A DNA stretch of 60,507 nt, counting the filler, from a bacterium (GTDB lineage Bacteria; UBA9089; CG2-30-40-21; SBAY01): NCBI GenBank assembly GCA_040757115.1. It is 3 parts of 3 records of this genome, joined end to end, with 100 filler letters (N's around TTAATTAATTAA, not from the genome) between each part and the next. Parts side by side here need not be neighbours in the genome. Positions count along the whole stretch, not along the records: positions 1 to 20,361 come from JBFLYA010000053.1; 2 more parts are not named here. The stretch is one strand, 5' to 3'. Both the position numbers and the translations under genes were made by a program. Each line of letters begins with the position of its first letter. Position 1 is the stretch's first letter. Under the pieces are notes generated by a model. The model was not told the DNA's origin, made no database searches, and saw nothing but the letters and a program-made list of their open reading frames with translations. Shown piece after piece: positions 8,778-40,920 of the stretch.

Positions 8778-10067
8778 TTATCCCATCAACCATTTTGTAA
8801 GGGGAATAAGGTTAATCCAAAAACCTTTAAATTCTTCTTTTGCCTCTACATCCCAGGTAATTACAGTTAAGTTTTTGCAATTTAATCTTTCAGCTCCCAG
8901 AATTAAAGATTTAAACTCCCTTTCTTTTGTTTTAATCTCTTCTATTTTATAACAGACCTGGATTAACTCTTCTATCTTTGTCTTTTCTTTTAGAACAAAA
9001 TCTATCTCTTTCCCCCTTGCATCTTTGTAATAATAGAACTCAATCAATGGTCTTTCATTCTGTCTTCTTAATAGCTCTAAAAACACACAATTTTCCATTA
9101 ATCTTCCGATGTCTTCCTGGAATCGGACAACCTTTGAGATGCCTGTGTCGCAGAGATAGACCTTTTTCGGCCAGGCTTCTTTCTCATATATCTTTTCTGA
9201 ATACCTCAAGAGAAAGAATACACTTACTGAATCTTGAATCTTTTCGCAATAATCATATAAGGTATTTTTTCCAATCCTCTTTCCTTGTGATTTTAAGAAG
9301 CTAAAGATTTTATTTATGCTGATTTCACAAGAAAGATTTTGGGCAAAGAATGAAAGGAGGAATCTTGCCAGAGCGATATTTTTTAATTTATGCCTTTCCA
9401 CCAGGTCACGGAAAAGGATGAGTTCATAAAACTCTTTTAATATCCGCTCCTTCTCTTTTTCTTTAATTATCTCTGGGAAACCTCCAAATTCTAAATATCT
9501 TCGCAATTTACCCCTTATTTCTGCTCTTTCCTCCTTTGAAAGAGAGCCTACTAAAGAAATTCCTTCTGCTCTTAAAAATTCAGAAAAACTAAAAGGAAGA
9601 AGCAAATATCTGAATGTCCTTCCCCTTAAAGAGGTAGCAATTTCATAAGCCAGTAGTTTTGAAGAAGAGCCGGTAATAAAGATTTTGTATCTTTGGGTAT
9701 CCAGGATTTCTCTTACCGCAAGTTCCCAATTTTGAATATTTTGAATCTCATCAAAGAATAAATACTTTGGTTCTCTTGCGGTAAGTTCTTTATAAGTTCT
9801 TATTAAATCCCTTATTTCCTTGAAATTGACATCTGTTAATCTTGTATCTTCAAAGTTTAGATAAAGGGCTTCTTCTTTCTTGTCTTTCATTAACTGATAG
9901 AAGTAATATGTTTTTCCTGCCCTTCTTGGTCCGATGATAGAGATTATTCTTTCTGTTTCTGTTATCATTAGCTCCCTTTCTATCAAAGGCGGAATAGGTC
10001 TTTTGGTATATTCTAAGATGTAATCTTCAACCAACTCCCGATTCATAGGCTCTCTCCTTAAAGACAA
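8778..10067 (-). CDS. AAA_14 ATPase + DUF4143 protein
   Basis: IGPRRAGKT, FFDEIQ, ITGSSSKLL, GGFPE, KKVYLCDTG, EIDFV...LIQVC. Confidence 0.88.
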   Translation of the reverse strand: MSLRREPMNRELVEDYILEYTKRPIPPLIERELMITETERIISIIGPRRAGKTYYFYQLMKDKKEEALYLNFEDTRLTDVNFKEIRDLIRTYKELTAREPKYLFFDEIQNIQNWELAVREILDTQRYKIFITGSSSKLLAYEIATSLRGRTFRYLLLPFSFSEFLRAEGISLVGSLSKEERAEIRGKLRRYLEFGGFPEIIKEKEKERILKEFYELILFRDLVERHKLKNIALARFLLSFFAQNLSCEISINKIFSFLKSQGKRIGKNTLYDYCEKIQDSVSVFFLLRYSEKIYEKEAWPKKVYLCDTGISKVVRFQEDIGRLMENCVFLELLRRQNERPLIEFYYYKDARGKEIDFVLKEKTKIEELIQVCYKIEEIKTKEREFKSLILGAERLNCKNLTVITWDVEAKEEFKGFWINLIPLTKWLMG

Positions 10068-13279: not shown

Positions 13280-14593
13280 TTAACTCTCCTCTAAAAGCCA
13301 TTTCCATAATGGAATATAGTTTATTTTTTTATCCTCAACATCCTCTTCTGCCTCATAATCTTCTGTGATAACGAAGCCTTGTTTGAGATTCAACTCCTTC
13401 ATAGCCTTAAGCAGTGCTGAAACCTCCCTCTTTCTTGTCCTGGGGCTGTTCACATCCCAGCAGACCTAAATGAGCTCTTTTGGCTTAAAATCCTCCTTCA
13501 CCACAAAATCCACTTCCCTGTGATGCACATCCTTCCAGTAATAAAGCTCTAAGTTAGGCTTTGCACATCTCCTTCTTTCTAACTCCAAAAAGACAAGATT
13601 CTCTGCAAGCCTGCCTAAGTTTTCTGAGAATCTGAAGCCGATGGTGTTGGCAAGACCTATATCTATGGCATAGACCTTCCTGGGGCTCTTCTCCTGCTCT
13701 TTAACCCTGAAGGAGAACCTTTTGAGGAAATACAGGATATAGGCCTCTCTCAAATAACCAGAGAATCTCTCAATGGTGTCTGCTGATACTTTTAAGAATT
13801 TTTCTAAGGAACTAAAGGTTGTAAGGGAAGATATGTTGCTCAGGTAGAACCTGGTGAGGCTCATCAGCTCCTCTCCCTTCCTTATCCTGAACCTCTTTAT
13901 GATATCCCTGTTTAATATATCCTCAAAAAGCTTAAGCAGAATCTCTCTTCTTTCTTTGGCAAGGACCACCTCAGGGAATGAGCCAGACTCTAAGCACTCC
14001 CTTTGTAATCTCTTTATGTTGGTCTCTTGATTTATGAGGTCAAGTCTGTCTTTGAGATTGATACCGCAAAATGTAAGATACTCTCTGAAGGAGAGAGGAA
14101 ATAATGTGAGGTCCAGATGCCTTCCAGTGAGTAGAGTAGCCAATTCTGTACTCAGCAGTTTTGCGTTTGAGCCTGATATGATAAGTTGTGCTTTATTCAA
14201 CTCATGAACTGTTCTCACCCACTTTTCCCATTCCTTTGCCTCCTGAACCTCATCTAAGAAGAGATAGGGTCTCTGCTTTGGGTTTAGGAACTCCAAATAG
14301 ACTTCGTATATCTTCTGCAAGTTTTTGGCATCCAACCCAGTGAATCTTGGGTCTTCAAGGTTGACAAATAGTATCCTGTTCTTCTCCACACCCTCTTTGA
14401 TCAAGGACTTGGCCAATTGCCTCATCATAAAAGACTTTCCACTCCTCCTTGCACCAGTAATCACGATGATATGGGAGGTGGTGAGGAAGCCTTTGAGCCT
14501 GTTGAGGTAGTGAGGCCTTTCGTATCCTGTGGCTAAATCCTTCTTCCAGAAGTTCCAGTCTTCTAATACCCTGATTATCTCATTTTTCTCCAT
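13280..14593 (-). pseudogene. AAA_14/DUF4143 ATPase with a premature TAG
   Basis: Paralog of 8778-10067; ...KELI*VCWD... where the paralog has LIQVC; frame stays open 62 more codons to IPLWKWLLEES*. Confidence 0.8.
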
Positions 14594-14892: not shown

Positions 14893-15180
14893 GTAACTAT
14901 TCAGCCACAGATGGACACGGATGAAACACGGAAAAATCTGTGAGGCGTGTCCGAGATCCGTGTCTGTAATTAGGCTGAAGGGTTTTTCTCCTCTATCCTT
15001 CTTGATTTTCTGCCAGTGTAGGGAATTTCCACCCCCTAACCCCCGCCAGCGGGGGACAACCCACCCCCTATCCCGCCAACGGGGGACAACCCGCCTCTAA
15101 CCTCTGTCTTCTGTCCTCTGCCTTCTGTCCTCTGCTATTTATCTGTGCCAATCCGTGTTAATCAGTGGCTGAATAGTTAC
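14893..15180. mobile_element. IS66-end-like MITE (family B)
   Basis: GTAACTATTCAGCC...GGCTGAATAGTTAC; inverted homolog of 49654-49920; no target duplication seen here. Confidence 0.75.
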
Positions 15181-17915
15181 TATTTTTTTATCTTTTCTCT
15201 TGCCTCTTTGAGCCAATCTTTGCCGTATTTAGCCTCAAACAATTTTTCTATTAGCTTTCTTTCTACCGCCTCAAGCCGTTCAAGTCTTTTTAGTGCTTTC
15301 AATGGCTCGTCTCTTTCTAAATATCCTCCTATTTCATTTGCCACAAAGAAGATGTTAAGCCTCATCCAGAGCTTTTCCCAATTTAGCTCCTTAAGCATAT
15401 CTTTCAATATAATAGCCTCTTCATATCGGCTTTTAGAAAACAGGTCTTTAAGAAGAAGGATGAATGCCTCATCTATGTCATCGGAAGGTATCTCCATAGC
15501 CCTTATCTCTCCTAATCTCTTCTTTACTAAACCATAATTCTTACTCTCAAGTTGAAACTCTATGGAATAGAAAGATTTCTGAGGTTTCAGCCTTATTCCT
15601 TCTTTATAAGCCGCAAAGCCTTCTTCATAACGACCAAGCTTATCAAGTATCTCTCCTTTGTTATACCACGCTACAGCATCATCAGGCTTTAATTCTATTG
15701 CCTTCTCAAAGGCGGCAAGTGCTTCTTCATAACGACCAAGCTTATCAAGTATACATCCTTTGTTATACCACGCTATAGCCTCATCAGGCTCTAATTCTAT
15801 TGCCTTCTCATAGGCGGCAAGTGCTTCTTCATAACGACCAAGTTCACCAAGTGCATATCCTTTCCTCCACCACGCCAAGGCATCATCAGGTTTTAATTCT
15901 ATTGCCTTCTCAATTGCTACAAGTGCTTCTTCATAACGACCAAGTTCACCAAGTGCATATCCTTTCCTACGCCACGCCAAGACATCATCAGGCTTTAATT
16001 CTATTGCCTTTTCAAAGGCTACAAGTGCTTCTTCATAACGACCAAGTTCACCAAGTATCCATCCTTTGTTATACCACATCCAGGCACAATCAGACTTTAA
16101 TTTTATTGCCTTCTCAATTGCTACAAATGCTTCTTCATAACGACCAAGATTACCAAGTATACATCCCTTGTTATTCCACGCGAAGGCATCATCAGGCTTT
16201 AATTCTATTGCCTTCTCATAGGCTGCAAGTTCTTCTTCATAACGACCAAGTTTACCAAGTATCCATCCTTTGTTATTCCACGCTTCAGCCATATCAGGTT
16301 TTAATTCTATTGCCTTCTCAGTTGCTACCAATGCTTCTTCATAACGACCAAGTTCACCAAGTGCATATCCTTTCCCACGCCACGCCCAGGCATCATCAGG
16401 CTCTAATTCTATTGCCTTCTCATAGGCGGTAAGTGCTTCTTCATAACGACCAAGTGTACCAAGTTCAACTCCCTTATCAACCCATTCCTTAGCCAAATCA
16501 GGTCTTTCCTTATCTCGCTCAATTTCATAAGAAAGAGGTTCAAGAAATGGCTTTTCAATAATAAACCTCTCCTTTAATCTGATTGCTTGCTCATAAAGCC
16601 CTACCAGTTCACCTGGCACCTTTTTCTTAAGCCCAATTAATTCATCATGACTAAAGATATGGGCAAATAAAGGGATGACAAATGACCATTTCTCTTGCCA
16701 GGAGCCACCCTTTCTCCATTTATACCAGATAGAAAAAAGTGGTTCAGAGAGGATATAGAATCTTTCCTTCCCTGTGCTTTCTGTAGCACTCCTTAGCCAA
16801 CCCTTCTTTATCAGCCGCAAGATGTAAGTGGAAACCTCGGCTAAACTAAAGGAGGTCTTCTCTTCAATCTCTTTAGGTTGCAAGGATTGCTCGGATTCGG
16901 CAAATAACTCTATTATCTTTCTTTCCTTTGGAGGTAAAATCCACAAAGCCTCTCTGTAGATTAAGGTGAGCTTCTCAAATATCTCCTGCATAAATCCAAA
17001 AGAAGACCGCCATCTAATCTCTGCGGATTTTTCATCATCTATCCTTCCACATTCAGAGAGAACAATCTCAAAGAGGGGAAAGATCATTCTTGGCAGTCCT
17101 CCTGAAAGATAAGAGATTGCCTGGAAGATTCTTATTCTTCTCTCACCCTGGGGAGAACGAAGATATTTAATTAGCCGGGGAGACTCTTTGGCATAAAACT
17201 CTTGAATCCTTGAGATGAGCTCAAAAGACTCACTATCGCTGAACCTACTAATCTCATGTTTTTTAAAATAGCCATAAATAGAAGAATCCCTTTTGCCAAG
17301 AATTTCAATAAAGGTTGCTGATGTAGCCAATAGTTTAAGGCTCTTTGAACGGGGCAGGAGAGAAAGGAAGTTATCTACCTCGTTTTTTTCAAAGGAGTCA
17401 ATCAACCGATCAAGATTCTCTACCATTATTATCGTTCTTTTCCTGAATCTATCTCTTATCTCCTCAAATACACTTTTTGCTCGATTGAATCGCTTATCTT
17501 TATTCTCACCCTCTTCAACCCATTTAATCTTACTATTGACAAATTCGTGAATTTTTTCATCTTGTATCGTCCTTCCGGGTATATTGATAATCACCTCAAG
17601 GGCTCTTTGGAGTATTTCCGCCACATTTCTTGCGCCAAAGAGCTCCTCTGGAAGCAGGATAGGGAAATAGTGTTTTGAGAGGGATGTATCTTCTTTTATC
17701 CGATGAAAGATTATAGAAAGGAGGAAGGTTTTTCCTATCCCGGCTGGACCATAAAAGAGGTGGGACTGAAGGTATCTATCCGACTCTATCTCCTCTTTTA
17801 ATTCTTTGATTATATCCTCTACATAATCCTTTCTTTCTCTTCCTACAAAGATAGACTCTAAATCTTCGGCTCGTTCAACCGCAGGATGAAAGCGACTTAT
17901 CAAGATCTCGCTCAT
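15180..17915 (-). CDS. STAND-type ATPase - wHTH - TPR protein
   Basis: YGPAGIGKT, IMVENLD, SGGLPR; about 9 near-identical 34-aa TPRs (LGRYEEALxAxEKAIELKPD). Confidence 0.85.
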   Translation of the reverse strand: MSEILISRFHPAVERAEDLESIFVGRERKDYVEDIIKELKEEIESDRYLQSHLFYGPAGIGKTFLLSIIFHRIKEDTSLSKHYFPILLPEELFGARNVAEILQRALEVIINIPGRTIQDEKIHEFVNSKIKWVEEGENKDKRFNRAKSVFEEIRDRFRKRTIIMVENLDRLIDSFEKNEVDNFLSLLPRSKSLKLLATSATFIEILGKRDSSIYGYFKKHEISRFSDSESFELISRIQEFYAKESPRLIKYLRSPQGERRIRIFQAISYLSGGLPRMIFPLFEIVLSECGRIDDEKSAEIRWRSSFGFMQEIFEKLTLIYREALWILPPKERKIIELFAESEQSLQPKEIEEKTSFSLAEVSTYILRLIKKGWLRSATESTGKERFYILSEPLFSIWYKWRKGGSWQEKWSFVIPLFAHIFSHDELIGLKKKVPGELVGLYEQAIRLKERFIIEKPFLEPLSYEIERDKERPDLAKEWVDKGVELGTLGRYEEALTAYEKAIELEPDDAWAWRGKGYALGELGRYEEALVATEKAIELKPDMAEAWNNKGWILGKLGRYEEELAAYEKAIELKPDDAFAWNNKGCILGNLGRYEEAFVAIEKAIKLKSDCAWMWYNKGWILGELGRYEEALVAFEKAIELKPDDVLAWRRKGYALGELGRYEEALVAIEKAIELKPDDALAWWRKGYALGELGRYEEALAAYEKAIELEPDEAIAWYNKGCILDKLGRYEEALAAFEKAIELKPDDAVAWYNKGEILDKLGRYEEGFAAYKEGIRLKPQKSFYSIEFQLESKNYGLVKKRLGEIRAMEIPSDDIDEAFILLLKDLFSKSRYEEAIILKDMLKELNWEKLWMRLNIFFVANEIGGYLERDEPLKALKRLERLEAVERKLIEKLFEAKYGKDWLKEAREKIKK

Positions 17916-19243
17916 TTTGCAGGAAACCTCCTCCAGAAGTCCCTTAATAATTTTGATTTAAAAGAGTATTTGCCATTTTTCTCTTCTATCAAGAGGTCAT
18001 CTATAAGCCATTGAATCATATTTTCAAACTCCTCTTGTTCAAGACCAGTCTTTTCTTTAAAAATCTTCTTTGCCATCCCTTTTTCTATCTCTTCTTTAGC
18101 CATTTCAGAAAGCATAGCATAACCTGCCGATGACAATCTTCCAGGATACCTTCTGGGTAAATCCTGAAAGTCTCTTAAAAGATTCCAGCCCTCTTTACCT
18201 ATTAACCTTTCATATATCTCTTCAGGGCATACATCTTTTTTCTCTCTATATACCTCATTCCACACATAGACAAAGATATGAATAAAGTAAGGCACATAGG
18301 TTTCAAGGAGATTACATATTTCTTCAATCTCTCCCTTTTTTGGGATTATCTGTGAATTGTAAGCAAGTTCTTCAAGGAGTAGATTTGCATCCTGTCTTTC
18401 AAGCAAAGGAAGATCAATCTTTTCAAAATTAGAAAGGGTTTGCCCAGCAATTCTATCCTCTGCTTCACTACTTGCCGTAATGAATCTTATATTAGAAAGA
18501 TTAAAGAACCGGTCAAAATTTAGAGGTTCATTATTATTTTTAAGATTTCTTAAGAATTCAGCAAACTCGTCAACCAGGAGTAAGTAGTGTTTATCTTGAG
18601 GGAAAAGAGAAGGTAGTATACTCTCTAACCCCTCTTTTGATGTCTTTTCAATTTCTTCCCTTTGTTTTTGACGTTCAAGGGAATTGCCCTTTTTTATTTC
18701 GTATCCAATTGCCCCTAAGAATGCTCTCACATCTTGCAGATTTCTTGCCTGGATGAAGAGGGGTTGATAAGGTTGGGGTGGTCTTTCAAAGATGGCATTA
18801 AGTATTGAGGTCTTTCCATAACACCTTGGAGCACGGAGAGAAATATGCCTTTCTTTAAGCAATTCCAATATTTCCAAAATCAAATTTTCCCTGCCTACAA
18901 GTTCATCAAAGGGAAGAAGGGTTCTTAGGCGAATAAGGAAGGTAGGAATTCTATTCTTTGTAAAGAGCCATTCAAGATGCCTTCTAAATCTCTCTTCATT
19001 AAAACTTCCATCTTTATAGGCATATTCTACAATATCTTTTACCTCTTGAGCCTCCTTACTGGTAGATGAGGTGGTAGTAAGTTCTAAAGAATGCTTTTGG
19101 GCAAGTTCCTTAGCCGTATTAAGGAGAAGAAAGTAAAGGTCTAAAATTTTTGTGTCGTTGACTTCCTTTCTTTCATTTATAATTCCCAAAGAGAATCCTT
19201 TGTCTTTGTTTGAGAATTCAAGAAGATATTTATAAGTTTTCAT
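17912..19243 (-). CDS. P-loop ATPase (archaeal ATPase_2/STAND-like)
   Basis: LVGRE, APRCYGKTS, LLVDEF, PYFIH, LLRDFW; ATGA overlap with the downstream gene. Confidence 0.8.
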   Translation of the reverse strand: MKTYKYLLEFSNKDKGFSLGIINERKEVNDTKILDLYFLLLNTAKELAQKHSLELTTTSSTSKEAQEVKDIVEYAYKDGSFNEERFRRHLEWLFTKNRIPTFLIRLRTLLPFDELVGRENLILEILELLKERHISLRAPRCYGKTSILNAIFERPPQPYQPLFIQARNLQDVRAFLGAIGYEIKKGNSLERQKQREEIEKTSKEGLESILPSLFPQDKHYLLLVDEFAEFLRNLKNNNEPLNFDRFFNLSNIRFITASSEAEDRIAGQTLSNFEKIDLPLLERQDANLLLEELAYNSQIIPKKGEIEEICNLLETYVPYFIHIFVYVWNEVYREKKDVCPEEIYERLIGKEGWNLLRDFQDLPRRYPGRLSSAGYAMLSEMAKEEIEKGMAKKIFKEKTGLEQEEFENMIQWLIDDLLIEEKNGKYSFKSKLLRDFWRRFPAK

Positions 19244-19949
19244 GTTGGTTTTGTTCCTTTATGTACTTCTTCCAGGTCTTATCAGCAAATTCGTCAGCAA
19301 TCATCAGTAATCCGCTTAAGGCATGAAAACGGTCCTGGATGGATTTAATCTCTGGGTGGTTTACATTTTTCCTTATTTCTTCATAAATTATGTGCTGTTT
19401 AATATCCCACGCCTCTTGCAGTGAAGTCATAATCTGGACCTCAAGATAATACACCTTTTCATCCCTTTTCATCTTAAAATACTCATGGATAGCCCGATGT
19501 GCCCCTTTTTCAAAACTCAAACCTGCTTCAATTCTTTTATCTTTTCTCTTATCTTCACAGTATTCAAAAGGGACAGGGTCAAAATCAGACTTATTCTTTA
19601 ACTTTTCATCTATTTTCTCCATATCCGAGTTATAATTACATAGAATACGGCAGCGGGCAATATCGTCAAGCTTTAAGATACAATCTTCGATAAATCCTTT
19701 TAGATTTGATGCAGAAGGCTTTTTCTTTATAGTTTTATTAATCTTTTCAACAATAGAGGAAGAGGATTTAAGCCTATTTTTATTCTCTATATCTATCCAA
19801 TAGGCTTTTCTTCCATATTGAAAAAAGATTTTGTCATTCTCTTGGGTTATAAAATCAAAAAGTTTTTTTATAAAATTGTCATAGAAGATTTCCCAGGTAC
19901 TTCTTAAATCCTGAATAATTTTAATAGTGTCGTTGTTTAGTTCAGGCAT
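19230..19949 (-). CDS. RelA/SpoT-domain small alarmone synthetase-like protein
   Basis: RLKSSSSIVEK, DDIARCRILC, HRAIH, LEVQIMTSLQEAW...H; no hydrolase domain. Confidence 0.75.
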   Translation of the reverse strand: MPELNNDTIKIIQDLRSTWEIFYDNFIKKLFDFITQENDKIFFQYGRKAYWIDIENKNRLKSSSSIVEKINKTIKKKPSASNLKGFIEDCILKLDDIARCRILCNYNSDMEKIDEKLKNKSDFDPVPFEYCEDKRKDKRIEAGLSFEKGAHRAIHEYFKMKRDEKVYYLEVQIMTSLQEAWDIKQHIIYEEIRKNVNHPEIKSIQDRFHALSGLLMIADEFADKTWKKYIKEQNQHENL

Positions 19950-19971
19950 TTTTGTTTCCTATATAATTAGA

Positions 19972-20060
19972 ATTATACCACAGTATTAAATTTTTGTCAA
20001 CTAAAATTTTAATCAACAAATTTGTTAGTCAACAAATTTGTTAGTTAACAAATTTGTTAA
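19972..20060 (-). promoter_or_regulatory. sigma70 promoter plus three tandem palindromic operator-like repeats
   Basis: Minus strand TTGACA-17-(TGG)TATAAT at 20000-19972; three 16-bp units containing AACAAATTTGTT at 20013-20060. Confidence 0.7.
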
Positions 20061-20361: not shown

Positions 20362-20461
20362 NNNNNNNNNNNNNNNNNNNNNNNNNNNNNNNNNNNNNNN
20401 NNNNNTTAATTAATTAANNNNNNNNNNNNNNNNNNNNNNNNNNNNNNNNNNNNNNNNNNNN
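20362..20461. other. artificial contig linker
   Basis: N-run with a TTAATTAATTAA six-frame stop. Confidence 0.95.
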
Positions 20462-22827: not shown

Positions 22828-23025
22828 ATGAAAGCAAAAGAGTCATTAACCGATTATTTAGATTATCTCCAAACTGACAATATTATAGAAGCCACTCAAC
22901 AAGCACGTAAAAAGAGCATGCATCTTTTACAAGACCAGGGTATTGCTGTTATGGCTCTTTTAATCTCTAACTTCATTACAGAAGCAATTGACCATCCTGA
23001 ATTATTATTAGAGAAGGCATCATGA
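22828..23025 (+). CDS. putative antitoxin
   Basis: 65 aa, AGGAG RBS, ATGA overlap with the PIN gene. Confidence 0.5.
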   Translation: MKAKESLTDYLDYLQTDNIIEATQQARKKSMHLLQDQGIAVMALLISNFITEAIDHPELLLEKAS

Positions 23026-23489
23026 AATGTGTTTATATTGATACCTCCGTAGTGAATATCAATCTGTTTGGTACAAAGAAAGAACCAGAGCGATATTCTA
23101 TAGTAATGAATTTCTTTAATCGACTTAATAGTCAAGAATTTGAAGGATTAATCTCCCTATATACCCTTCAGGAAATATATGCCTTTTGTGAAGATAACTT
23201 TCCATTAAACTATGTAAGAAAAGTAGTTAAATTGTCCTTTCAAGAATTACTAAAGAGTGAATTGCAAATAATTCCTTTATTAAAAAGATCCGAACGATTA
23301 GTTCACCAAAGAAAATTTCCGATCTCAGATTTATCTGACCAACCTCATGCAATTTTAGCCTATCTGAATGGGTGTGATGCTATTATTACTTATGATGACC
23401 ACTTTAGAGATATCGGATCTATCATTAAAGTTTTTACGCCAGAAGAATTCTTGGATATACTTGACAACAAACTTTTGCAGGAAATTTAA
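23022..23489 (+). CDS. PIN-domain (VapC-like) toxin
   Basis: VYIDTSV, ISLYTLQE, DQPHAILA, IITYDDHF. Confidence 0.8.
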   Translation: MKCVYIDTSVVNINLFGTKKEPERYSIVMNFFNRLNSQEFEGLISLYTLQEIYAFCEDNFPLNYVRKVVKLSFQELLKSELQIIPLLKRSERLVHQRKFPISDLSDQPHAILAYLNGCDAIITYDDHFRDIGSIIKVFTPEEFLDILDNKLLQEI

Positions 23490-29406: not shown

Positions 29407-30288
29407 TCAAGTTGTAATTTTTTGCTCAAATTGCTTAAACTTTTCTCGACACTTTCTCAACGCCAACCTGCGTAGTTTCTTTACACGCTCTTCAAGGTAT
29501 TCAAGTTCACGCTTGGTAATTTTATATGATTTCTTGTATCGTGCACCAATATATGCTTCCTTCAGAAGCTCAAACAGATGTTTTTCTTTGCCTTTTTCCC
29601 GTGGGAAAATCTCGGCGAAATCCGTATCAATTTTTTCCATTCGCTCTGTTAGTTTCTCTAAATCGTGTGTTCTTGGTTTGTAGCTGGTAAGTACGAGAGA
29701 AGCACCAGTGTATAGGTGTTCGGTGGTCTGGTGGAGATGGAAAGCAGCCTCATTATTCCAGCCTTTCTTAAAACTAGATTCATAATACCAAAAAAATTTC
29801 TTCGCCTTCGGAAACCAGATTTTATAATCCTCCTTTGCCAGTGCCCTTTTTATTCCTGGGGTAAGCTTCCTTGCTCGTACCAGTTGGAATCGTCTTGAGT
29901 CATAAAGGAGTATGCCTTCCTTTTTGACATCAGCATAGAAGTATCTGCCAACTGAGAGTTGTTCATTGACATGCTCAATATCTTCCCTAATAAGTTTTAC
30001 TGGTGTATGAATCTTACGTCTGATTTGATTTTCAACTTTATTCCAAATCTTATAATCATCTACTATCTTCTCCTCCTGCACAATCACCATAATGTCAAAG
30101 TCACTTTCATAATTCGTGAAATGTTCCTCTTCAGCATCATATCGAAAATCGCGCTCCACGAAGTCTCCACGAGCATAACTGCCAAACAGAATAATCATCT
30201 CGACTTTTGCTGCTGCACGAATGATTCCAACGATATCTTCGAGTTCCTCTCGTTTATACTCCGGAAGATGGTTTATGCTTGTTTTCAT
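29407..30288 (-). CDS. nucleotidyltransferase (MNT) - HEPN fusion
   Basis: ILFGSYARG, SDFDIMVI; AAFHLHQ, PRTHDL, AYIGARY. Confidence 0.88.
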   Translation of the reverse strand: MKTSINHLPEYKREELEDIVGIIRAAAKVEMIILFGSYARGDFVERDFRYDAEEEHFTNYESDFDIMVIVQEEKIVDDYKIWNKVENQIRRKIHTPVKLIREDIEHVNEQLSVGRYFYADVKKEGILLYDSRRFQLVRARKLTPGIKRALAKEDYKIWFPKAKKFFWYYESSFKKGWNNEAAFHLHQTTEHLYTGASLVLTSYKPRTHDLEKLTERMEKIDTDFAEIFPREKGKEKHLFELLKEAYIGARYKKSYKITKRELEYLEERVKKLRRLALRKCREKFKQFEQKITT

Positions 30289-40820: not shown

Positions 40821-40920
40821 NNNNNNNNNNNNNNNNNNNNNNNNNNNNNNNNNNNNNNNNNNNNTTAATTAATTAANNNNNNNNNNNNNNNNNNNNNNNN
40901 NNNNNNNNNNNNNNNNNNNN
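40821..40920. other. artificial contig linker
   Basis: N-run with TTAATTAATTAA. Confidence 0.95.

Follow-up and report, generated by a model that had tools for sequence, protein, structure and literature searches.

The window analysed here (the whole stretch of 60,507 nucleotides, joined from contigs of the bacterial assembly GCA_040757115.1) carries three adjacent genes that encode a stand-alone synthetase of the RelA/SpoT fold, a STAND-type (signal transduction ATPases having numerous domains) ATPase, here called the helper, and a second STAND-type protein with tetratricopeptide repeats (TPRs), here called the sensor. This trio is a real conserved module, apparently undescribed; the linkage of its genes, the co-occurrence of their domains, fusions, a motif pattern in the synthetase and a conserved DNA element are all directly observed. 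We lean towards reading it as a self-contained cassette for abortive defence, in which a sensor/helper pair of the NOD-like receptor (NLR) kind would gate a toxic pyrophosphotransferase similar to the toxic small alarmone synthetases (toxSAS). As such, the trio represents a testable case of a prokaryotic paired sensor/helper NLR architecture with a separable effector.

Recurrence and linkage of the three genes

A preliminary description of this DNA had proposed three overlapping, co-oriented genes behind a perfect sigma70 promoter, and both features were borne out. The genes occupy the minus strand, with a 14 bp overlap between the synthetase and helper open reading frames (ORFs) (19230-19243) and an ATGA overlap between helper and sensor (17912-17915), and consensus scoring of the sequence alone gave a promoter match at 12/12 positions plus the extended TG (Table 1). 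The perfect promoter alone is not special, because the gene next to the trio is driven by another. Contig C412 contains the entire trio; the runs of N at 20362-20461 and 40821-40920 (with a short linker) are joins between separate contigs, and genes past 20361 lie on other contigs and are not true neighbours. Chance adjacency and a chimeric window were both ruled out, as a single contig holds the whole trio and the trio recurs.

Three diverged copies with identical gene order occur within the source genome (27-37% identity in the first two genes) and, together with recurrence elsewhere, argue that the trio is more than chance. A metagenome search with the synthetase alone as query recovered at least 44 loci, which fall into 38 groups at 90% identity and 13 at 70%; 3 of the loci stop at a contig edge, leaving 41 readable. 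Among the matches listed, to which all locus counts in this text refer, the helper's N-terminal domain directly follows the synthetase in 40/41 readable loci, the sole exception (L084) having a deleted helper next, and a STAND gene comes third in 24/24 loci of sufficient length. A genome search with the helper as query gave at least 64 loci, of which 7 hold the N-terminal domain, the synthetase and the STAND gene, and 47 lack the N-terminal domain and, where upstream DNA suffices, the synthetase; the remainder either have no upstream DNA (9) or were not called (1). The STAND gene is present in 30 of those 47, and in this two-gene version, an ATPase plus a STAND-repeat protein, the N-terminal domain occurs in 0/30 and the synthetase is absent. 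The domain profile was built on synthetase-linked rows and related loci do not count as independent cases, yet the proteins can be seen directly to differ in length.

In the window's phylum the helper occurs in 6/25 genomes and the synthetase in those same six. In a second phylum, five matches were found in 4/401 genomes, and the helper follows each of the five; one of these loci (L148) has a gap of ~130 aa with no match to the N-terminal domain, and L146 matches the L004 copy. Synthetase and N-terminal domain have been lost together in two decayed loci (L130 and L084), and in two others (L018 and L110) the synthetase is broken with the domain still there; such cases are few, and assembly errors are a possible explanation. 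The neighbourhood comparison disclosed no conserved fourth gene beside the trio loci. Neighbourhood conservation had been put forward as a check in the preliminary description, which would have been refuted had the three genes not occurred together elsewhere; on this comparative evidence the trio recurs widely in metagenomes and genomes.

Longer forms were absent from the first search for homologous proteins; an exhaustive profile search did yield fusions, in which synthetase, a spacer of ~100 aa and a complete helper ATPase form one chain (P0128 of 734 aa, P0136 of 768 aa and the cluster mate P0168). By their predicted domain order these are effector-STAND chains, with the enzyme at the position of an NLR effector. 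A further protein, P0089, lacks the last C-terminal helices of the synthetase. The C-terminal SELLYVAD helix motif of the enzyme has diverged in P0128, P0136 and P0168.

The two STAND-type ATPases

The helper consists of an N-terminal domain, an NTPase with intact Walker A and B motifs, a helical domain and a winged helix, and has no sensor repeats. Its model (pLDDT 91) is closest in Foldseek to two archaeal proteins, SSO1545 (2fna, E 2.6e-10) and paby2304 (2qen, E 3.7e-10), followed by Orc1/Cdc6, resistosomes and Avs3/4; model and Foldseek matches together identify the STAND architecture of AAA+ core, helical domain and winged helix. Profile comparison matches helper and sensor through the winged helix (probability score 96.9), and by sequence the two ATPases are paralogous STAND-type NTPases. 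The Npun2340/2341 family of STAND NTPases, as Leipe and colleagues are said to have described in 2004, likewise has two adjacent paralogous NTPases, and we know of no synthetase or operator link for the MNS clade of STAND NTPases. That clade, with the Npun2340/2341 family named in the available part of PMC8195603, may be akin to the trio's ATPases in its fold, the helper being nearest to SSO1545 and paby2304.

The sensor comprises an NTPase, a winged helix (approximately residues 325-400), nine TPRs (475-780) and a helical C-terminal cap; the estimate of about nine TPRs agrees with the nine stretches given by Pfam TPR_1. Of the earlier assertion that both ATPases keep Walker A and B motifs, the part on the helper stands (APRCYGKT, LLLVDE), and the part on the sensor does not, its Walker B reading IIMVENLD. 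The corresponding family pattern is hhhh[DE]N, with N or S at the catalytic Glu position in 72/72 homologues, whether synthetase-linked or not. A conserved acidic patch after strand 2 (LPEE/FAEE) could supply the catalytic Glu, so that the sensor need not be dead. Its winged helix has a basic wing, and 4/4 homologues scanned gave HTH_24, MarR_2 or LexA-type matches; in the window's own sensor no DNA-binding HTH family was found at E 0.001. Repeat arrays vary in length and type among homologues (TPR matches in 17/20 scanned), and share the helical cap at their end.

The N-terminal domain of the helper (~100 residues, beta-beta-alpha-beta-beta-alpha, model pLDDT 89.9) is seen only with the synthetase, and has no Pfam, PDB-sequence or Atlas-feature match. 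In a second look, the antitoxin ATfaRel2 ranked first of 105 Foldseek candidate chains (Z 4.0, root-mean-square deviation 3.3, 64 of 75 residues aligned end to end), a score that is non-significant alone; the best Z in a wide search was 4.7, which shows neither a new nor a known fold. The ATfaRel2 likeness of the model is a lead that gains weight from context only. The ATfaRel2-type fold (pZFD/ATfaRel2/PAD1) is the recurrent antitoxin of tRNA-targeting toxSAS, according to the parts of PMC10440598 and PMC11782079 available. A lead to DUF6718 from the Atlas was dropped, its single confident locus having no adjacent synthetase.

The synthetase subfamily

Matches to Pfam RelA_SpoT (31.2 bits against a cut-off of 27) and, by profile, to the solved RelP, RelQ and CapRel (E 5e-12 to 4e-7) place the predicted protein in the RelA/SpoT synthetase (small alarmone synthetase, SAS) superfamily. 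The altered motifs noted earlier, HRAIH and EVQIMT, are both present in it, and belong to a subfamily signature of DxxRxR, no G-loop Tyr, ExQxM and WDxKxH. Among the best 150 clusters at 50% identity, on which all subfamily counts are based (fragments without the DxxRxR column being uncounted), 95 domain matches carry DxxRxR and 61 are canonical. Six subfamily motifs found no member in the RelA/SpoT homologue (RSH) alignment of PMC7229694.

Ligands on the side of the active site that would hold the donor ATP are preserved. The window synthetase keeps the predicted donor-ATP and Mg ligands K61, S65, K69, D96, R101, E170 and Q172. Using FaRel2 numbering as given in the available part of PMC11782079, with columns mapped by motif spacing, the equivalents of K66 (87/89), S70 (62/90), K74 (88/90), D90 (95/95), R95 (95/95), E145 (90/90) and Q147 (89/90) are kept across the subfamily. 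The adenine-stacking Arg of beta1 (FaRel2 R64) is retained in 4/88 against 44/61 canonical domains; at the FaRel2 G93 position, on a neighbouring strand, the subfamily has an invariant Arg that may substitute for it.

The acceptor side differs. The G-loop Tyr is found in 0/91 subfamily members (His in 50, Glu in 32) against 53/61 canonical domains, plus one with Phe. The ExQxRT Arg, which we take to face the acceptor side, is retained in 0/90 against 45/61. Where Glu replaces the Tyr, it pairs with a Lys four residues on in 31/32 cases, as if the acceptor pocket were filled; in the window's subgroup the position is occupied by His, with which base stacking could still occur.

Because the whole subfamily lacks the G-loop Tyr, the residue that binds the acceptor base, it is unlikely to carry out ordinary alarmone synthesis, and the alarmone or tRNA product suggested earlier finds no support in this pattern. 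As the acceptor pocket looks rebuilt, the acceptor is probably neither GDP/GTP nor ADP/ATP. An RNA 3' end is our tentative first choice and a protein a doubtful second; water, which would make the enzyme an ATP drain, is unlikely, and a nucleotide after all is less likely still. The conserved rebuilding of the pocket points to chemistry beyond alarmones and tRNA-CCA.

Absence of the G-loop Tyr and the ExQxRT Arg, and of the stacking Arg in most members, would also fit a pseudoenzyme, one that exerts allosteric control over the ATPases and either binds ATP or acts as a reporter of nucleotide levels. We hold this to be very unlikely, since the Mg-binding Asp and the Glu are invariant and the Gly-to-Arg change may make good the stacking Arg.

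Several related proteins were noted in passing. Outlying synthetases (P0097, P0104, P0119, P0137, P0138 and P0140) combine absence of the Tyr with ExQxM, some having DxxAxR, and are possible intermediates; many proteins of 410-460 aa (P0113, P0115, P0120 and others) carry two tandem canonical SAS domains; and canonical SAS domains are fused behind long N-terminal regions in relatives of the source genome (L131 2898-4460, L133 2285-4183). An attempt to collect toxSAS antitoxins gave five phage matches, RelQ-like or SAS with other C-terminal domains, and two viral scans in that attempt gave nothing.

Operator-like array and synthetase-less pairs

An array of alternating GTTG/CAAC half-sites with a 16-bp period overlaps or flanks the promoter, and in the window stands directly upstream of the -35 box. 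With a threshold of at least 11 of 14 positions, it was detected in 37/41 trio loci (shuffles 13/205), 26/32 pair loci (4/160) and 3/21 lone ATPases (2/105); since trio loci supplied the template, it is the pairs that give an independent count. Three trio loci cut off at an edge (L091, L106 and L109) had been assigned to the pair or single class, and the three positives among lone ATPases are perhaps truncated pairs. In the source genome, clustered matches occur only at the trio promoters of contigs C412 and C166; the trio copy on C46 scores 11, and two isolated high matches lie elsewhere. As no regulator gene is nearby, the simplest reading of the operator is autoregulation by the sensor's winged helix, and the cassette is probably self-regulated.

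The pairs of ATPase and STAND-winged-helix-repeat protein (L007-L065, e.g. L017, L032, L045, L046 and L064, the last with two pair cassettes in tandem) occur in Acidobacteria, Planctomycetes, Chloroflexota and methanogens. They carry TPR or HEAT arrays and share the operator, in archaea as a GTTATATAAC variant. In a quick tree of 87 helper cores, the root of which is untested and which raised long-branch warnings, the pairs without a synthetase group in a single clade (98) that lies within the synthetase-linked helpers, a topology that suggests the trio to be older and the pair derived. The pair and its shared operator constitute a second unexplained widespread module.

These pairs bear on an alternative in which the two ATPases are the working unit, acting for example as an ATP sink or as a DNA clamp of the ORC/Cdc6 kind, while the synthetase would serve as a dispensable regulator that has the N-terminal domain as its substrate or dock, and not as its antitoxin. 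Their retention of operator and winged helix, their spread through Acidobacteria, Planctomycetes and methanogens, the joint loss of enzyme and domain in the nested clade and the rebuilt pocket with its Glu/Lys pairing all agree with it. Nevertheless, the fusions put the enzyme where NLR effectors sit, and pair-only loci could use an effector encoded elsewhere; on balance we consider this alternative unlikely.

Proposed mode of action

In the favoured interpretation, that of a gated toxSAS-like enzyme, the helper's N-terminal domain would keep the synthetase inactive at rest, acting as an antitoxin, and the ATPase pair would sit on the palindrome array through the sensor's winged helix and set its own expression. 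An invader molecule, presumably from a phage, would be bound by the variable TPR array, upon which the sensor would nucleate a mixed oligomer with the helper. The enzyme would thereby be freed and would exert toxicity with ATP as pyrophosphate donor. The preliminary description had read the trio as a split NLR; the paralogous STAND pair, the variable repeats and the fusions fit a sensor/helper NLR, and the alarmone or tRNA product attached to that reading is not supported in the form given. A broader proposal, a new class of RelA/SpoT-fold enzymes that pyrophosphorylates a non-nucleotide target (e.g. a protein), with an antitoxin domain on the helper, release by the sensor and an operator common to bacteria and archaea, is improbable as a whole.

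We infer an anti-phage role from indirect signs: the module is patchily distributed, occurs in several diverged copies, varies in its repeats and is built of components familiar from defence systems. Both STAND-TPR proteins and toxSAS have an established place in defence, according to the sections available of PMC13581612 and PMC11782079.

A number of observations weigh against this interpretation. Four toxSAS are reported to lose their toxicity when the G-loop Tyr is changed to Ala, FaRel Y175A retaining residual activity (PMC7229694, available part). The match to ATfaRel2 does not rise above noise (Z 3.8 and rank 38 of 48,161 in the wide search, Foldseek E 2.6; T4 Soc reaches 3.9), and the 32-row alignment of the N-terminal domain shows only scattered aromatics and no conserved YXXY motif after beta3. 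The spacer of the fusions matches that domain weakly (E 0.15 overall, 0.004 to one subgroup), with single-sequence scores within the shuffle range, and P0089 keeps the catalytic motifs without the domain, its enzyme core being joined to the C-terminal part of the helper. Pairs that lack an effector are widespread; inspection of their C-terminal tails by eye revealed no enzyme domain, and no neighbouring gene is conserved, so the ATPase pair may have an output of its own. As to genomic setting, the defence context is weak: 11 of 124 neighbours (27 loci) match PADLOC at 1e-10, a raw count, and these are mostly generic kinases, ABC ATPases and PDC singletons, with one type IV restriction enzyme. 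Most trio copies elsewhere sit among housekeeping genes, and searches of IMG/VR and of phage and plasmid collections gave no family member.

This setting would suit a ligand-responsive transcription or stress-signalling cassette that works in a MalT-like manner, its TPRs responding to a host cue and its enzyme producing a mild signal, as would the DNA-binding-type winged helix with its conserved operator and the precedent of LypABC, an NLR-like trio serving other ends (PMC13236601, in the part available). We regard such a non-defence role as quite unlikely, given that clustered operator matches only at the operon's own promoters imply no regulon and that conflict genes typically show such a patchy distribution, three divergent copies in a genome and variation in the repeats.

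Relationship to described systems

On the trio itself, PADLOC 2.0 returned only PDC-S33 (E 3.7e-7) and generic TPR matches, with no Avs/NACHT-system match, and neither PADLOC nor NCBIfam holds a named system that matches it. Nor was the trio found in the literature searched, most subscription papers lying outside that search. These negatives are consistent with the earlier remark that the combination is not recognisable as a named system. On the predicted features compared, the trio falls outside toxSAS, Avs/bNACHT and CARD-NLR; the comparisons below draw on the available parts of the sources cited.

With toxSAS (FaRel2/ATfaRel2, CapRel, PhRel, PhRel2 and FaRel; PMC7229694, PMC11782079) the trio shares a stand-alone synthetase domain with donor-ATP ligands, gene overlap and an obligate partner next door; the topology of the partner domain may also resemble that of ATfaRel2, the match being weak. 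It differs in the absence of the G-loop Tyr, the invariant DxxRxR and the lack of YXXY in the partner, whose domain forms one chain with a STAND ATPase, a second gene of STAND-TPR type coming next. Avs/bNACHT proteins (PMC13581612; bioRxiv 10.1101/2022.07.19.500537) also have a STAND NTPase, a winged helix and a variable TPR sensor, and resemble the fused forms as effector-STAND chains. The trio, in contrast, spreads these parts across three genes and mostly encodes the effector on its own, the fusions recovered combining it with the helper alone, and there are two paralogous STANDs of SSO1545/paby2304 type, one sensor-less and the other without the Walker B Glu. No RelA/SpoT effector appears in what was available of PMC13581612 and its 7 supplements.

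CARD-NLR and LypABC systems (PMC10312443, PMC13236601) likewise have three genes, encoding an ATPase-TPR protein, a second ATPase with an N-terminal adaptor and a separate effector. In the trio, however, the adaptor-position domain is alpha/beta in the model and not a CARD, no protease family matches, the TPR-bearing ATPase is the degenerate one and the effector has an RSH fold. Two further systems place a synthetase under the control of a separate sensor or NTPase gene: in PANGU type I (bioRxiv 10.64898/2026.04.06.716658) the sensor is a nucleoid protein and the enzyme, unlike that of the trio, has the Tyr (Y129) and makes pppGpp, and in ParA-Tox-RelA pairs (bioRxiv 10.64898/2026.10.19.760177) the NTPase is ParA, a SIMIBI and not a STAND protein.

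Neighbouring genes and other features

After the trio, the window holds two PDC-S01 ATPases, an HNH-NB-ARC-TPR gene and a NACHT-HEAT-HD-CE gene (Table 1).

Table 1. Features of the trio locus and of the adjoining genes on the same contig.
Feature	Position	Strand	Remarks
RelA/SpoT-fold synthetase	19230-19949	minus	239 aa ORF
Helper STAND-type ATPase	17912-19243	minus	443 aa ORF
Sensor STAND-TPR protein	15180-17915	minus	911 aa ORF
N-terminal domain of helper ATPase, residues 1-100	18944-19243	minus	Candidate antitoxin or dock
Sigma70-type promoter, TTGACA-17-TATAAT + extended TG	19972-20000	minus	Consensus match
Operator-like array, three AACAAATTTGTT palindromes, 16-bp period	20015-20058		Starts 20015, 20031, 20047
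AAA_14 + DUF4143 ATPase (PADLOC PDC-S01)	13466-14593	minus	Perfect promoter 14667-14639; ~50 aa shorter than second
HNH nuclease + NB-ARC + TPR, 832 aa	10772-13270	minus	One-chain NLR-like candidate
AAA_14 + DUF4143 ATPase (PADLOC PDC-S01), second	8778-10067	minus	Longer of two
NACHT + HEAT repeats + HD-CE, 1227 aa	5064-8747	minus	NLR-like candidate

The preliminary description did not include four features: the N-terminal domain that goes with the synthetase, the array of operator-like palindromes, the pair without a synthetase, which is common, and the sensor's non-canonical Walker B. Among trio loci elsewhere, a type IV restriction-enzyme-like gene lies directly upstream of one (L093 4575-6272), and what we take by its look to be the end of a restriction-modification gene (L143 1008-3194) lies beside the second trio copy in genome G232. 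The neighbouring contig piece of the window carries a Pol-beta nucleotidyltransferase-HEPN fusion (29407-30288, minus strand) and a PIN-domain gene (23022-23489, plus strand).

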